Shown in pieces: positions 8,080 to 12,915 of a DNA stretch of 42,114 nucleotides; the first letter of the stretch is position 1; each line of letters opens with the position of its first letter. The stretch lies in IMG/VR virus record IMGVR_UViG_2585427728_000007; one strand, 5' to 3'. The notes beneath the pieces are model-generated. The model was not told the DNA's origin. It did no database searches and saw only the letters and a program-made list of their open reading frames with translations. The translations under genes were made by a program, and so were the position numbers. Source of the stretch: a virus. Taxonomy: Duplodnaviria; Heunggongvirae; Uroviricota; Caudoviricetes.

Positions 8080-8682
8080 TCATCCCCCGAATGCTGATGT
8101 AACGCTTCCGCCCAGCTGGCTCAGCAAGGATTCGTTTGGCGGTGTAGTGGATTTCATCCCGGAATTCTGCACCGCCGATGTGCTGACGCCATCCTGCATA
8201 TCTGATTTATCTGCAACGCTAACGCTCTGCGTCTGCGACATGATCACTTCACGCAGGGTAAGCGTGCAGTTCAGCACGTTCTCGCTGGTTTTATCCGTTG
8301 TCACCTCGATGGCTCGCACCAGCATATTGCTGTAAACCCGCTTTCCGGTCACTACATCGAACGGCACCCGAGAGGACTGTAGATCCAGTAGTTGCTGATA
8401 GGTCTCTTTCGGGCTAAGTCCGGCGCTGAGGCCGATTGACAATGTATCAATGAAGTCCAGCAACGAACCGCCACCAGCGAAGCCGCATTCCATTGTGACT
8501 TCGCTGGGGCGCTTATACGCATGATCGGCGATGAAGCCCGAAGCGCTATTCGTTGTTGGCTTCTCCACCGGGTGCTCAGTAATTTCGAGCGCATCAGAAT
8601 GCTTTTCGGAGACGACCACGCTGGGGATCAGCAGGCCAATTCGCCGGGATTGCTGGCGAAAAATCGCTGATAAAATATCCAT
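8080..8682 (-). CDS. Hypothetical tail protein (downstream of tape measure)
   Basis: 200 aa ORF whose start is adjacent to the tape measure stop; position comparable to Mu gp43. Confidence 0.45.
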   Translation of the reverse strand: MDILSAIFRQQSRRIGLLIPSVVVSEKHSDALEITEHPVEKPTTNSASGFIADHAYKRPSEVTMECGFAGGGSLLDFIDTLSIGLSAGLSPKETYQQLLDLQSSRVPFDVVTGKRVYSNMLVRAIEVTTDKTSENVLNCTLTLREVIMSQTQSVSVADKSDMQDGVSTSAVQNSGMKSTTPPNESLLSQLGGSVTSAFGG

Positions 8683-10697
8683 TATCTCGGTCCTGCGGGG
8701 AGTTGCTGGGTTAACTGTGAATTCACGCCCTTTTGACGATCAACAGTCAAACGGGCAGCCTCGCGCGGATCGGAAACGCCGTGGATGTTAATATTCGTTT
8801 CCTGCTGAATCACCGGGGCGCTGGTGGGCATGTTGCTCATTACTTTCGGAATGTAGTTACGCGTTTCCTGCGGCATTAACCCCATGCCATAGCGCTTAAC
8901 ATTCCCGATCCCCCAGTTATATGATGCCAGTGCTTTGCTAAGGTCTCCGCCGTTCTGCCGCAACAGCTGGCTGAGGTACTTAGCTGCGGCCTGAGCTGAC
9001 TTTTGCGGGTCGAATACATCGTTTCCGCGAAGGCCCATGTCGCGCGCCGTACCATCCATAAACTGAAACAGACCTTTAGCGCCAGCGCCTGAAACGGCGA
9101 ACTGATTACCGCCAGATTCCGTTATGGCCACACTGCGCAATAACCCCTCCGGAAGCCGGTAGAGCTGTTCCAGGTTGGTAAGCATCGGCTGCATCCATCC
9201 CAGCAGTTCAGAGCCTGCTTTGGTTGGCTGTGGCCGCTTAACTGACTGGCCGAGCTGTTCAGGCTCATCATCACCGAACCAGCCGCGCACCGTTCGGCCC
9301 ACGCTGCGAGGATCGAATCCCCAGTGCTCTTTAATCCAGTCGGCGGTACCGTTGGCGCTGTCTGTTACCATCGGCATCGCTGACGGATTTTCGCTGCCCT
9401 GATTTAGCAGCTGTTTGCCTATACTAGCGGCCTGCGCCCAGTTGCCATCTTTTATGGCATTCAGCAAATCAGCGATCATGTTCAGCATCTTGCCGAACTC
9501 ACCCATTTGCGAAATGAAGTTGCTAAAATCCCACTTTAGGGACCATGACTTGGGGTCAATACCGAGCAACTTAGCCAGCGCTTTTGTCAGGTCCGTAACA
9601 GTCTTTTTCAGGTCACCAATCATTTTGACGGCCTGATCAATTTCAGTCTTCCATTTCCCCCAGTCAATCAGGCTTTTGCCACCTTCTTTCCACGTCTGGT
9701 AATCATCCAAGAGCAGACCAAGTGCAATAATAAGCGTCGTTATCATGCCCAAGGGTGATGACATGAAAGCGGTATTTAGCAGCCGCCATGCAACCAACAG
9801 CCCACTGAACAATGCGATAAGCTGCTGCGTGGCTGGGTTCAGCTTTTTGAACCAGGCGATCACACCCTCAACAGCTTGCCCAGTTCGCCATAACACGCGG
9901 GTAATCGCGTCACCTGCCCAGAGAATTCCTTTGATGATCTTCGTGATGACCGCTTCAATCTTCGGCCAGTTGTCGAGTATCTGCCTGCGGAAGTTATCAA
10001 TACTGCCAGCAAGGCCACCAGCTAGGTTAGAGCCAATCTTGTCTTTCGCCTGTCCAAGCGTCATCGTCAGATTACGCATGGAGGTCATGAAAATATTGGA
10101 CTGTTTAGCCGCTGACTCAGCATTAAAACCAATACGCTTTGCCGTCAACGCGTACTCAGAACTGAGCTGCCCCATCCCTCTGCGCATCGCCATCAGCGTG
10201 TTTTCATCGATGCCAAGCATCTGCGCGTATTGTTTCGCGCGGTAATACGGCATGTTGTTGAGCTTTTGCCCAACGCCAGTAAAGATGGCCGCAGTATCAC
10301 GCATCTTTCCGCTGGCATCGCGGGTCTGTACGCCCAGACGGTTCAGGAACCCTTCCGCCCCCGGATTGCTACGCATGAAACCAGCCAACCCTTCAAGAGA
10401 GGACATGGCCGACTCGGCGCTGGCACCGGTTTGCGATGCGGCATAGCCCAGCGCTTTGATGCCCTGGACGCTGGCCCCCGTCCGCTGGGATGCCCAGTAA
10501 ATTTTATCCAGACCATTCGCGATCTGGGTGGTAAATCCGACAATGCTAAGCGCTGAGCCTTTCACCACCGCGCCGACCTTCAGAACGTTCGCGGTAACGC
10601 CTTTCAGCACGGCTTCAAACTTATTAGCGCCAGCCTGATCGATATCGAATCCCAGCGAAACAAGGAAATCTTTAATCGTATCTGCGTTACCGCTCAT
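8682..10697 (-). CDS. Tail tape measure protein with C-terminal lytic transglycosylase (SLT) domain
   Basis: 671 aa; long helical Ala/Gly-rich N-terminal part with hydrophobic segments; C-terminal ...SVAITESGGNQFAVSGAGAKGLFQFMDGTARDMGL...YNWG... carries the catalytic E-S and GLFQ motifs of soluble lytic transglycosylases; preceded by the chaperone gene with a frameshift window. Confidence 0.8.
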   Translation of the reverse strand: MSGNADTIKDFLVSLGFDIDQAGANKFEAVLKGVTANVLKVGAVVKGSALSIVGFTTQIANGLDKIYWASQRTGASVQGIKALGYAASQTGASAESAMSSLEGLAGFMRSNPGAEGFLNRLGVQTRDASGKMRDTAAIFTGVGQKLNNMPYYRAKQYAQMLGIDENTLMAMRRGMGQLSSEYALTAKRIGFNAESAAKQSNIFMTSMRNLTMTLGQAKDKIGSNLAGGLAGSIDNFRRQILDNWPKIEAVITKIIKGILWAGDAITRVLWRTGQAVEGVIAWFKKLNPATQQLIALFSGLLVAWRLLNTAFMSSPLGMITTLIIALGLLLDDYQTWKEGGKSLIDWGKWKTEIDQAVKMIGDLKKTVTDLTKALAKLLGIDPKSWSLKWDFSNFISQMGEFGKMLNMIADLLNAIKDGNWAQAASIGKQLLNQGSENPSAMPMVTDSANGTADWIKEHWGFDPRSVGRTVRGWFGDDEPEQLGQSVKRPQPTKAGSELLGWMQPMLTNLEQLYRLPEGLLRSVAITESGGNQFAVSGAGAKGLFQFMDGTARDMGLRGNDVFDPQKSAQAAAKYLSQLLRQNGGDLSKALASYNWGIGNVKRYGMGLMPQETRNYIPKVMSNMPTSAPVIQQETNINIHGVSDPREAARLTVDRQKGVNSQLTQQLPAGPR

Positions 10698-10874
10698 TGG
10701 CCGCTCTCCATTTATCTACCCGGGCGTCGTTATCCTCGCGCATGTCGAGGTAGTCATTGAGAAGCGCGATACGGCAGAGGTCTACCGCACCGCTGTTAAG
10801 GTCTTTCTGGTCAATATGGAAGGCAAGCGCCGGACGAAGAATAAAGTCTTCACCGCCCGGCAGGCTGTTGAAGG

Positions 10875-11300
10875 TTATTCCGCTGGCGGGGGGGGCGTCT
10901 CGCTGGTAGGGAGTCCTTGCAAAAAATTTCCCAGAGAGTCGGCGACCACCCGCGCCACCAGTTGCAGCATGGTCAGCAGGTCGATATCGTCAAACGCCAT
11001 TTCGCCATGCTGGCAGACCGGCACCCAGCCTTTCATGTGCTCGCGTGAAACAACGGAAAGGCAGGGGAACAGGATAGCGTCCACGTCGCCATCGCTCAGA
11101 TCGGACACAGCATTGGCAATCTTTGGCAGGATGGTAGCCATCGCGCCTTCGGTGTCTTTGCTGCTGATCTTCTCCTGAACGCTCCGGAAGTCAGAAACCA
11201 TCCCGGCCAGCACCGGCAACAGCTTGCGGGACACCTTCAGCTGTTCGAAAACGCTGAGCTTTGCGGTGCGATATTTCACGCCTTTAATTTCGAATTCCAT
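10875..11300 (-). CDS. Tail assembly chaperone (short form; see frameshift finding)
   Basis: 141 aa ORF between tail tube and tape measure; ends ...ETPPPPAE just after a run of eight C; the -1 frame stays open through the following 177 nt up to the tape measure start. Confidence 0.6.
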   Translation of the reverse strand: MEFEIKGVKYRTAKLSVFEQLKVSRKLLPVLAGMVSDFRSVQEKISSKDTEGAMATILPKIANAVSDLSDGDVDAILFPCLSVVSREHMKGWVPVCQHGEMAFDDIDLLTMLQLVARVVADSLGNFLQGLPTSETPPPPAE

Positions 11301-11303
11301 GCG

Positions 11304-11744
11304 TTAAAACTCCCCGAGAAGCTGGTCAATCTTGCCGCAGTCGAATACCCAGGCGACGGTTCCGCCCTCTTCAGCGTTATTGAAATCAGGCTGTTTCTGG
11401 AATGCACACGAACGCGCAGTAGAAATATCACCCGATGCCGTGTTGCGAATGACGATCACGTTATTGCCCCAGGTGGCAGAGGACTGGCTTTGCGCGTTAT
11501 ACGCCAGAGACAGCTTTTTATTCACCGGGGAGGTTTTGAGTAGCGTCACCGTAATGGTGCCTGACTTATCGGCGTGCAGGCTGTGCATCACCTCGCCATC
11601 GGCACCGATGGTCATGGTGTTTTTGTTGCCGCCCATGGTCTGGGTGATACCTTCCTCAGAGTTCGCAGAACCCTGACCAAGATCGATAACGCCGGTCGGC
11701 CCGGTGAGCGACGCGGTTACATCGAGAAAAGAATAAGTTGCCAT
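11304..11744 (-). CDS. Tail tube protein (contractile tail)
   Basis: 146 aa ORF immediately downstream of the sheath-like gene and upstream of the chaperone; size and order typical for tube proteins. Confidence 0.6.
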   Translation of the reverse strand: MATYSFLDVTASLTGPTGVIDLGQGSANSEEGITQTMGGNKNTMTIGADGEVMHSLHADKSGTITVTLLKTSPVNKKLSLAYNAQSQSSATWGNNVIVIRNTASGDISTARSCAFQKQPDFNNAEEGGTVAWVFDCGKIDQLLGEF

Positions 11745-11754
11745 TTATCGCTCC

Positions 11755-12915
11755 TTAGCGAACCACGTTGATCTGCACATCGGCATAATGAACTGCGCCA
11801 GCCAGCTTACAGGCCACCTGGATTAACGGTGCTTTGCGCGCTTCGCGGTCGGCCTGCGCCTGTTCGGACAGCGGTTGCGCATACACGTAATAGCCTTTGG
11901 TCAGCGTATCGCCGGAATTCAGTTGCCCGATAGGGCCACCATTCCACACGCCAGCCGCTACCAGACCGTTCGTGACGGACTGATCCATAGACTGTTCAAC
12001 GTTGGAAAGCAGACGGGTCACACCGGCATCAGTCTGCGGAATTTTGGTGGTGCTGGTGTAAAGCAGGTTATAGAGGTTGGTCTGAACGTAGTTCTGCAAC
12101 CAGTCGAGCCCGTGGCGCTCGTCGAAGAAGTCACCGTTCGCCATGACACCCTGTTGCAGGATCGCCGTGTCGTTGGCGTAGTACACGAACACGTTCGCAT
12201 TCTTCGTATCCACCGCAGCCGCCTGGCCTACCGTCAACGTTTCGTAGGTTACGCTCGGTTCCTGTTTGAATTTCAGGGTAATGGTGGTATTGCTGCCGTT
12301 GAAATTGACAGTAAACGCGCGACCGAAAGCTGAAACCGCCGCATAAGGGCTGCTGGTGGAATATTGAATAAAGGTACGGGAATACTTACCGGCCTTTAAT
12401 TTAGACGCAACATCGGTCGTCGAAGTCGTGCTGATGATCTCAGCGTCGGCTGACGTTACCCCGAAAATGCGGCTCAGGCTGGACGCTTCGATGAGTTTAG
12501 CAACCTCAATCACGTCGTCAGCATCAAGCACATCATCGCCATCAGCAACATCATCAGCGACAACCAGCCCATACCAGTTGGTATACTGCAGGCAGGCATT
12601 AACAGCTTGCACGATGGTTTCCACGCTTCCACCTTCGGAAGAGGTCAGCGTCTTCGCCCAGCGGCCAACATAAACCTGCGTCGGCTTCGGCGACTGGCTG
12701 AAGAAAACCTGCGCCGCTTCATATTCCGGGCTGTCGACTCCGAAGTCCTCGCCAATGTCCTCAACGGACGCATAAAGGCGGACGCGTTCCTGCACTGGAA
12801 TGACAGTGGAAGAACCGAGGATCAGCAGCGCGCCGAAGTTACGACCAGTAGCCGCTTTCGGCGAGATGATCACATCAACGTTTACAACGTTGGATACAGG
12901 TAAGCCCTGCGTCAT
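11755..12915 (-). CDS. Tail sheath protein (contractile tail)
   Basis: 386 aa ORF at the head of the sheath-tube-chaperone-tape measure block; baseplate V/W/J-like genes downstream support a contractile tail. Confidence 0.65.

Follow-up and report, generated by a model that had tools for sequence, protein, structure and literature searches.

Among the closest described systems, the E/E+E′ gene pair of phage P2 frameshifts at TTTTTTG, a proven site for which no downstream structure has been reported (PMC3091744). In phage lambda, the N part of the chaperone binds the tape measure protein and the −1-encoded part binds the tube protein, and the G/GT mechanism has been reviewed (PMC5009743). For the TAC-N/TAC-NC genes of Pakpunavirus (phage Adele) and Andersonviridae, a conserved −1 extension has been described along with a poly-T motif, GTTTTT, that is invariant close to the TAC-N 3′ end, and the downstream ORF there is routinely mislabeled as hypothetical (PMC12846349). 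The tail assembly chaperone (TAC) locus analyzed here has the sequence features of the G/GT-type class (Xu, Hendrix and Duda 2004), namely the characteristic gene position, a −1 overlap that lacks a start of its own, a slippery heptamer, and conservation of this layout.

The window, a stretch of viral DNA of 42,114 nucleotides, is a prophage-like myovirus. All features described below lie on its minus strand, where the ORF listing and the Pfam and phrog profile matches give the order sheath, tube, TAC, tape measure. The tail sheath protein belongs to the DUF3383 family (11755..12915; Pfam PF11863, 1.4e-103; phrog_205 “tail sheath,” 9.2e-129), and the tail tube protein, of the KPP10_Orf10/DUF3277 family (11304..11744; Pfam PF11681, 1.9e-59), is encoded directly 5′ of the chaperone gene (10875..11300). 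On the other side lies the gene for the 671-aa tape measure protein (8682..10697; phrog_2276 “tail length tape measure protein,” 4.4e-225), which carries a C-terminal SLT lytic transglycosylase domain at residues 510–605 (Pfam SLT, 1.3e-24) and whose ATG is preceded, 6 nt upstream, by the sequence GGAGAG (10709..10704). A promoter and terminator scan of the chaperone region revealed nothing notable. Read in frame 0, the chaperone gene yields a short form, TAC-N, of 141 aa and 15.4 kDa that ends in ...SETPPPPAE at a TAA stop codon (10877..10875). Residues 6–128 of this protein exceed the gathering threshold of Pfam PF21822, Phage_TAC_15 (114.9 bits vs. a cut-off of 22), and the protein also matches phrog_1688 “tail assembly chaperone” (6.7e-57).

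The original prediction for this locus, a programmed −1 frameshift at a C_CCC_CCG heptamer, described the surrounding geometry correctly. The chaperone ORF indeed stops just after a run of eight C nucleotides on the coding strand (10895..10888), and a gap of 177 nt (10874..10698) separates it from the tape measure gene. Through this gap the −1 frame remains open as far as a TAA (10689..10687), such that the end of the extension overlaps the tape measure ATG at 10697 (GCC AAT GAG CGG TAA in one frame and ATG AGC GGT AAC in the other). A slip at the C-run adds 66 residues, ASGITFNSLPGGEDFILRPALAFHIDQKDL...KWRAANER, in agreement with the earlier estimate of about 67. The −1 frame is open already from position 10989 (10989..10690), well 5′ of the C-run.

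The evidence supports the conclusion that the 177-nt gap encodes a −1-frame C-terminal extension of the Phage_TAC_15 chaperone. The extension comprises 77 codons followed by the TAA (10687..10920), running from GCA (10920..10918) to CGG (10692..10690), and its addition to residues 1–127 (or 1–126) of the short form gives, by translation, a predicted long form, TAC-NC, of 204 aa and 22.6 kDa. The −1 translation exceeds the gathering threshold of Pfam PF21829, DUF6889 (E = 8.2e-12; 45.1 bits vs. a cut-off of 23.9), with the domain located at 10702..10809 (residues 27–62 of a 66-aa query starting at 10887), and matches phrog_4364 (E = 1.4e-17). On the evidence of these two matches, the −1 frame does not stay open by chance alone. 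In addition, the DUF6889 segment is 33–49% identical to homologs in Burkholderia, Ralstonia, Bordetella, and Acinetobacter phages.

The two-frame layout is retained in ~140 relatives and in eight distant homologs (28–42% protein identity), whose hosts range from Enterobacteriaceae to Burkholderia and Acinetobacter. The extension is kept as protein in all relatives examined, with a length of 55–75 aa and an end at the tape measure start (12 phages, ~50 prophages, and the eight distant homologs). A broader statement, that conservation is higher in the extension than in the body of the chaperone, was rejected; it is true for the most distant homologs only, and among closer relatives it is the C-domain of the window that has diverged more. 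An AlphaFold2 model of the 77-aa extension, built from 18 sequences, has a mean pLDDT of 57.6 and a pTM of 0.31, and this low-confidence model hints weakly that residues 1–16 may form a disordered linker (pLDDT <50). A full-length MAFFT protein alignment intended for modeling was discarded because short DUF6889 fragments were scattered over the N-domain. A search of the PDB by sequence with the 204-aa product returned nothing relevant, the best match being an ABC-transporter binding protein (E = 0.3).

Located 27–39 nt 5′ of the C-run is a T-rich cassette, GGGAAATTTTTTG (10920..10932), which in frame 0 reads ctG GGA AAT TTT TTG (L G N F L). Three heptamers lie in phase within it, G_GGA_AAT (10932..10926), A_AAT_TTT (10929..10923), and T_TTT_TTG (10926..10920), and its sequence is identical in 12 of 12 phage genomes at ~67% nucleotide identity. 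Conserved in-phase X_XXY_YYZ heptamers lie inside the 0/−1 overlap, with T_TTT_TTN present at 49 of 53 prophage loci and in 51 of 52 de-replicated sequences (<95% nucleotide identity), and A_AAT_TTT in 41 of the 52. At the aligned Phe codon, distant homologs carry only T-rich motifs (C_CCT_TTT, T_TTT_TTC, T_TTT_TTT, A_AAT_TTT, and T_TTT_A). One natural variant has lost G_GGA_AAT (CTT GGA) and keeps the T-run, and single-ORF fusions found in databases arise by a change from T6 to T7 at this same run.

Codon usage within the cassette is strongly constrained in the same 52 de-replicated sequences. The codon for F126 is TTT in all 52 (background 48%), L127 is TTG in 43 of 43 (background 14%), N125 is AAT in 43 of 43 (background 38%), and GGA encodes G124 in 41 of 52 (background 8%), although the relatedness of the sequences inflates any probability computed from these counts. 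Codon 125 ends in T in 52 of 52 sequences, whichever amino acid it specifies. Codon-phase entropy in the alignment further shows that the most variable position changes from position 3 of frame 0 (entropy 1.4–1.56) to the wobble position of the −1 frame (1.42 vs. 0.72) in codons 128–134. This flip falls directly 3′ of the T-run and 5′ of the C-run. The dual-coded stretch that follows the cassette (10878..10919) specifies the 14-codon tail of the short form, QGLPTSETPPPPAE, in frame 0 and a linker of the long form, ARTPYQRDAPPASG, in the −1 frame; its entropies at phases 1, 2, and 3 are 0.78, 1.35, and 0.90, and the −1-frame wobble is again the most variable. In three related loci, the −1 frame opens only 52–58 nt 5′ of the frame-0 stop codon, at the cassette. 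These sequence comparisons show that the cassette is conserved and locked at the codon level, and that purifying selection switches to the −1 frame there.

On this comparative evidence, the chaperone gene is very probably decoded in two ways, with a −1 slip inside GGGAAATTTTTTG giving rise to the long form. Most ribosomes would read frame 0 to the TAA at 10877..10875 and produce the 141-aa TAC-N, and a minority would step back one nucleotide in the cassette and read 77–78 codons of the −1 frame to produce the 204-aa TAC-NC, of which the DUF6889 domain would be the C-terminal part. That ribosomes slip here is inferred, as are the efficiency, the exact register, and binding of the tube protein by DUF6889. 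tRNA-Phe on UUU is the most likely participant in the slip, which could use either of two registers or both. With A_AAU_UUU, Phe126 would occupy the A site and the product would read ...GNFF|ARTPY...; with U_UUU_UUG, the P2-type register, Leu127 would be in the A site and the product would read ...GNFL|ARTPY.... The corresponding predicted tryptic junction peptides are VVADSLGNFFAR when Phe occupies the A site (A_AAU_UUU or G_GGA_AAU) and VVADSLGNFLAR when the slip is at U_UUU_UUG. Taken singly, these heptamers are weak in E. coli reporter assays in which no stimulator is present (Sharma et al. 2014, Table S3), with frameshifting of 0.118% for U_UUU_UUG, 0.070% for A_AAU_UUU, and 0.069% for G_GGA_AAU against a background of ~0.055%. 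If lambda gpG/gpGT is a guide, the tape measure protein would be coated by many copies of TAC-N and few of TAC-NC, and the domain encoded in the −1 frame would bring in the tail tube protein. No report of protein-level data for this chaperone family was found in the literature searched.

Stimulated −1 frameshift sites of the dnaX, IS911, or IS3 type have a hairpin or pseudoknot 5–9 nt 3′ of the heptamer or a Shine–Dalgarno-like element 6–17 nt 5′ of it, and neither was found at the TAC locus. Folding of the downstream region in search of a stem-loop or pseudoknot had been proposed as a check of the C-run site, and no stimulatory RNA structure was found for that site or for the T-run. For the T-run, folds of 60 nt and 100 nt gave z = +0.97 and z = −1.73, respectively. 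The RNAalifold consensus was −0.46 kcal/mol with 0 covarying pairs, Rfam gave no match at the slip region, and inspection of 10946..10932 revealed no Shine–Dalgarno-like sequence. The efficiency of frameshifting is thus not accounted for by a stimulator, and a slip at the cassette would apparently not need one.

The alternative site, the C-run, arises from a single A-to-C change at position 10892, which creates both the run of eight C nucleotides and the heptamer C_CCC_CCG (10893..10887; the feature as a whole spans 10887..10895). In frame 0 the region reads ACG CCC CCC CCG CCA GCG GAA TAA, so the heptamer is an in-phase X_XXY_YYZ sequence inside the 0/−1 overlap. The change produces T137P in frame 0, giving PPPP, and H to P in the −1 frame. 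Polyproline stalls ribosomes, and a pause might follow there. Moreover, frameshifting on C_CCC_CCG in E. coli equals or exceeds that on U_UUU_UUG: rates with no stimulator, the IS911 stimulator, and the IS3 pseudoknot are 0.121%, 0.363%, and 1.59% for the former, and the latter reaches 0.247% and 0.765% with the two stimulators (Sharma et al. 2014, Table S3). One possibility is that the C-run is a second shift-prone site, 33 nt 3′ of the ancestral slip cassette, at which pausing on PPPP stimulates the slip, such that this phage would make two long isoforms and a higher ratio of long to short form than its relatives. We consider this proposal unlikely, but if true it would be a natural single-nucleotide experiment on how far the ratio of long to short chaperone can drift. 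Long forms made at the cassette and at the C-run would differ in 11 linker residues.

The reading that slippage in this phage occurs at C_CCC_CCG as the sole or an extra site to give a 204-aa product (...SETPPP|ASGITFN..., with the predicted junction peptide VVADSLGNFLQGLPTSETPPPASGITFNSLPGGEDFILR...) is quite unlikely. Over 671 nt, position 10892 is the one base that differs from the prophages of E. coli M172-1 and LR-33, and the C-run occurs in none of 79 close IMG/VR relatives, in none of the 60+ other homologs, and, by an exact-match scan, nowhere in IMG/VR. None of ~140 related sequences carries the heptamer, and conservation in the columns where it aligns is among the lowest (0.44–0.50). 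Relatives that lack the C-run still need and conserve the −1 product, and selection on the −1 frame begins 5′ of it. There is also no nearby hairpin 3′ of the C-run, the closest beginning >20 nt away (z = −0.93). The original prediction had named a conserved C-run with a nonconserved extension as the pattern that would count against it, and we observed the reverse, an extension that is conserved and a C-run that is private to the window. Its frameshift is supported, with the extension conserved in every homolog, but its site is not, since the C-run is private and the T-run is conserved. The C-run may nevertheless be a minor, nonconserved extra slip site. More generally, a conspicuous homopolymer beside a stop codon can mislead, and comparative codon-phase analysis finds the true site.

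Slippage by RNA polymerase, in which an extra U at the T6 run would create the long form, appears very unlikely in place of a ribosomal slip at the cassette. The site is a homopolymer, a T7 variant at the DNA level yields a fused ORF, and T7 occurs naturally in several family members. However, polymerase slippage usually requires longer runs, and 6 nt is short for the process to be efficient. Transcriptional slippage has been invoked for A7 and U7 (Sharma et al.). Furthermore, at the same position some distant homologs have no more than T_TTT_A or C_CCT_TTT (a 4-T run), and both the invariant T that ends codon 125 and the co-selection of GGA and AAT fit tRNA re-pairing rather than run length.

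It is highly improbable that a small, independent gene with its own start occupies the −1 frame, as implied by PGAP and several GenBank records. Stand-alone DUF6889 proteins of 27–75 aa are indeed listed at this position in RefSeq and GenBank, but within the window there is no ORF of at least 20 aa in that frame that begins with ATG, GTG, or TTG. The annotated N-termini are ragged (MPYQRD.., MTFNTL.., MPGGED.., and MRPVKV..), near-identical E. coli genomes are annotated differently (27 aa vs. 63 aa), and amino-acid selection in the −1 frame starts at the T-run, 5′ of any such start. DUF6889 is not a protein in its own right but the C-terminal domain that Phage_TAC_15 chaperones gain from the −1 frame. 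Finally, T5 and T7 length variants in some read-assembled contigs might suggest a sequencing error or a pseudogene in place of one continuous ORF, but this is almost certainly wrong, as the two-frame layout recurs in ~140 independent sequences that include complete genomes and isolated phages.

The practical value of these observations lies in annotation. RefSeq/PGAP and many GenBank records hold ragged proteins of 27–75 aa labeled “DUF6889 family protein” or mislabeled “lytic transglycosylase.” A single rule, to join the frames at NNT_TTT_TTG ~14 codons before the TAC stop codon, would mend hundreds of prophage annotations.

The original prediction likened the locus to G/GT of lambda and E/E′ of P2, and the comparison holds in that the same −1 chaperone logic appears to operate 5′ of the tape measure gene, with a heptamer identical to that of P2. 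As with lambda gpG/gpGT, the window appears to encode a short chaperone together with a −1 extended form that is rare and whose coding region runs as far as the tape measure gene. The lambda heptamer is G_GGA_AAG, with the highly shifty AAG codon, whereas the window has G_GGA_AAT, with AAU as the A-site codon, and this heptamer is dispensable in the family of the window, being lost in 15 of 52 sequences. In addition, the tail of the window is contractile and that of lambda is of the siphovirus type, and the proteins belong to different families. The likeness to P2 E/E+E′ extends to the heptamer T_TTT_TTG, a contractile tail, a gene located between those for the tube and the tape measure, and the lack of a downstream stimulatory structure, with none reported for P2 (PMC3091744) and none found in the window. 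However, at the level of Pfam profiles the TAC of the window matches Phage_TAC_15 and not any P2 gpE family, its products are 141 and 204 aa compared to 91 and 142 aa in P2, and its T-run is embedded in two further in-phase heptamers. The tail module of the Pakpunavirus and Andersonviridae phages is related to that of the window (KPP10 gave the tube family its name), and the frameshift claim is computational there as it is here. Pakpunavirus differs in genus and host (Pseudomonas), and its motif is GTTTTT rather than AATTTTTTG.

True homologs are found in Klebsiella phage Mulock (CPT_Mulock_014/015), which is 60% identical and carries the same GGGAAATTTTTTG, and in Burkholderia phage Magia (gp15/gp16), which is ~42% identical and uses C_CCT_TTT. 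The join position used for Mulock was sought by an exact-sequence look-up with 10 candidate fusion proteins, which gave no match, and the announcement of the Mulock genome is silent on frameshifting. For this locus, the GenBank records of both phages already contain a joined entry, “tape measure chaperone frameshift product.” Because the same frameshift is thus annotated in two homologous phages, it is an ordinary and already recognized phage feature.

The sequence features underlying the original prediction (the end of the chaperone ORF, the C-run, the gap that follows, and the open -1 frame) were all read correctly. The chaperone ORF (11300..10875, minus strand, as for all genes discussed here) encodes 141 aa, matches Pfam Phage_TAC_15 (114.9 bits) and phrog_1688, and terminates in GNFLQGLPTSETPPPPAE followed by the stop, with final codons ACG CCC CCC CCG CCA GCG GAA TAA. 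The eight C nucleotides occupy 10895..10888, and C_CCC_CCG is in phase at 10893..10887. After the stop, 177 nt pass before the next annotated start, the tape measure ATG (10697). An open -1 frame extends from 10989 to a TAA at 10689..10687, which overlaps this ATG. Transcription proceeds through tail sheath (12915..11755, DUF3383), tail tube (11744..11304, KPP10_Orf10/DUF3277), chaperone, and tape measure protein (8682-10697, 671 aa). The latter has an SLT lytic transglycosylase domain toward its C-terminus (residues 510-605), and thus is fused to a cell-wall-degrading domain. The genome is of temperate-myovirus type, with kin that include Citrobacter phage Omnitron, Salmonella phage SEN34, and Escherichia phages vB_EcoM-606R2 and relatives; many E. 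coli chromosomes also carry related prophages.

Translated by itself, the -1-frame extension matches Pfam DUF6889 (E = 8e-12, over the cut-off) and phrog_4364. Its conservation in related phages, which the original prediction proposed as a check, is borne out. In 12/12 phage genomes (~67% nucleotide identity), the -1 frame reaches 62-64 codons beyond the 0-frame stop, as far as the start of the tape measure gene. The same layout is present in ~50 prophage loci (a single locus for each bacterial species; 40-99% protein identity) and in eight distant homologs (28-42% identity) from Burkholderia, Bordetella, Ralstonia, Acinetobacter, Edwardsiella, and Providencia phages, whose extensions are 33-49% identical to that of the window. 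The exceptions among prophage loci are evident decaying copies: a second frame break interrupts the extension of L109 (Enterobacter sp. R1), L128 has a replaced C-terminus, L134 has a stop in the -1 frame, and the chaperone genes of L132 and L144 (Apirhabdus and Arsenophonus symbionts) are broken. AlphaFold2 modeling of the extension gave a pLDDT of 57.6, too low for the model to be of use, and a PDB sequence search with the 204-aa product gave no relevant match. The DUF6889 segment of the window (HIDQKDLNSGAVDLCRIALLNDYLDMREDN; 10690-10860, minus strand) is of a variant type, only 46-51% identical to those of Mulock, SEN34, EKP1, and yong1, compared to 56-79% for the chaperone body, which suggests mosaic exchange inside the gene.

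Codon-phase entropy is the decisive test for the site of the frame change. Upstream of the T-run in the slip cassette (minus strand, 10932..10920), position 3 of the 0 frame is the most variable (1.40-1.56 bits). In codons 128-134, just 3′ of the T-run and 5′ of the C-run, the -1-frame wobble is the most variable phase (1.42 vs 0.72), and it remains so through to the end. The -1 chaperone frameshift is retained as the kind of event, but its slip site is not the one proposed; -1-frame selection begins at the T-run. In three phages, the open -1 frame begins no earlier than the cassette. Single-ORF “fusions” are rare in databases and come from T7 at the T-run, which joins both parts constitutively in one frame (213 aa; P0004, a 16-sequence cluster; locus L092, about 1896-1912), and a T5 variant (P0003) shifts in the opposite direction, giving a +1-frame truncation. 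These homopolymer-length variants come from read-assembled contigs and are either real variants or assembly errors.

The invariant element in the 12 phage genomes is CTGGGAAATTTTTTG. Codon usage was counted in 52 sequences (de-replicated, <95% nucleotide identity), with usage in the same genes as background. F126 is TTT in 52/52 (background 48%), and codon 125 ends in T in all 52, whichever of Asn, Ser, Gly, Asp, or Pro is encoded; L127 is TTG in 43/43 (14%), N125 is AAT in 43/43 (38%), and G124 is GGA in 41/52 (8%), although these counts represent strong trends and not independent trials because the sequences are related. All three heptamers of the cassette are in phase: T_TTT_TTN occurs in 51, A_AAT_TTT in 41, and G_GGA_AAT in 37 of the 52 sequences. 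GGA accompanies AAT in 41 of 43 cases, and one locus (L062) has a broken G_GGA_AAT with the T-run intact. Sequences that lack A_AAT_TTT often have the stronger T_TTT_TTT (5/11, vs 2/41 with A_AAT_TTT; counts that ignore phylogeny), a possible compensation pattern. Across the distant homologs, a slip motif rich in T contains the aligned Phe codon in every case (C_CCT_TTT, T_TTT_TTC, T_TTT_TTT, A_AAT_TTT, or T_TTT_A), with G_GGA_AAT or ACT_TTC in the Bordetella phage, which argues that the family-wide core of the slip site is a T_TTY Phe codon. Two Bacteroidota-assigned loci, L008 (Elizabethkingia phage EKP1) and L124 (Chryseobacterium sp. 18061, contig NODE_1), carry an otherwise enterobacterial-type tail module (about 53-56% protein and about 66% nucleotide identity). 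They have the same slip T-run (AAATTTTTTG), EKP1 has the full GGGAAATTTTTTG, and their host assignment or assembly purity looks questionable.

The C-run is private to the window. Omnitron (98.9% identical) has CCCACCCC in its place, as do 79/79 IMG/VR relatives (94-99% protein identity) unless they carry other non-homopolymer variants. No in-phase C heptamer was found at any other locus compared (prophage loci and distant homologs), and the exact C8 allele was not found in IMG/VR. The sole difference in 671 nt from the prophage-bearing E. coli M172-1 or LR-33 is an A→C change at 10892 that creates the run, and is unremarkable because background divergence is 2-5% over 20 kb. Relatives without the run still conserve the -1 product, which excludes C_CCC_CCG as the family's programmed site. 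The change also creates PPPP in the 0 frame, converting TPTPP to TPPPP in the tail of the short chaperone (10884-10895, minus strand); such a four-proline run might need EF-P for efficient translation. A contribution of the C-run to frameshifting is possible but minor: the heptamer is in phase inside the 0/-1 overlap and could in principle be active, being shift-prone in E. coli reporters (0.121% with no stimulator, 0.363% with IS911 stimulators, and 1.59% with the IS3 pseudoknot; Sharma et al. 2014, Table S3), but there is no hairpin nearby.

Transcriptional slippage is unlikely to yield the long form, given that the T-run has only six T nucleotides, the distant homologs have only four, and the constraints are phase-specific. 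An independent small gene for the -1 ORF is rejected on the basis of -1-frame selection from the T-run onward, a search of the window's -1 frame that found no start-codon ORF of at least 20 aa, and the ragged, arbitrary N-termini of public DUF6889 proteins, which stand alone as 27-75-aa fragments and are called inconsistently on almost identical E. coli DNA. This combination argues that the extension can only be made fused to the chaperone. A sequencing error or pseudogene is rejected because the two-frame layout recurs in ~140 independent sequences.

For a ribosomal slip at the T-run cassette, Phe in the A site would yield ...GNFF|ART..., whereas the P2-type register would yield ...GNFL|ART.... 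The former seems at least as likely, because bacteria favor cognate A-site re-pairing (e.g., UUU), GGA is co-selected, and the distant homologs agree. The two forms are predicted to be 141 aa (15.37 kDa) and 204 aa (22.6 kDa) long; we infer both the frameshift efficiency and the tube-binding role of DUF6889. In E. coli reporters with no stimulator, IS911 stimulators, and the IS3 pseudoknot, respectively, U_UUU_UUG gives 0.118%, 0.247%, and 0.765%, A_AAU_UUU 0.070%, 0.355%, and 11.4%, and G_GGA_AAU 0.069%, 0.112%, and 1.05% frameshifting, with a stimulator-free background of ~0.055% (Sharma et al. 2014, Table S3). A downstream stem-loop or pseudoknot, for which the original prediction suggested folding the region, was not found by folding (60 nt, z = +0.97; 100 nt, z = -1.73), by RNAalifold on 50 sequences (-0.46 kcal/mol, no covarying pairs), or by Rfam, and inspection revealed no SD-like element 6-17 nt 5′ of the site. 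Many relatives, but not the clade of the window, carry a CCCGG-N6-CCGGG inverted repeat within RPV(D/E)AG codons (columns about 105-120 of alignment A2), which lies about 100 nt 3′ of the slip site, too far away to be a frameshift stimulator.

A useful by-product is the recognition that Phage_TAC_15 chaperones have DUF6889 as their -1-frame domain, and that its annotation is systematically wrong. On DNA identical over the 671-nt query match, the fragment called by PGAP is 27 aa long in E. coli M172-1 and 63 aa long in LR-33 (L157 851-934; L158 743-934). Stand-alone fragments in nr are often named “lytic transglycosylase” (P0125, P0128, P0130, and P0137-P0143), probably a spill-over from the overlapping tape measure gene.

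The phenomenon itself is a conserved tail chaperone frameshift that is already known, and the functional logic of short and long chaperones is taken from lambda G/GT (PMC5009743). The cassette shares T_TTT_TTG with the experimentally established P2 E/E+E′ site, which likewise lacks a downstream structure (PMC3091744). Joined “frameshift product” coding regions are already annotated in the homologs of Klebsiella phage Mulock and Burkholderia phage Magia, and a 2025 paper argues the same case, with a poly-T motif, for KPP10-like phages (PMC12846349).
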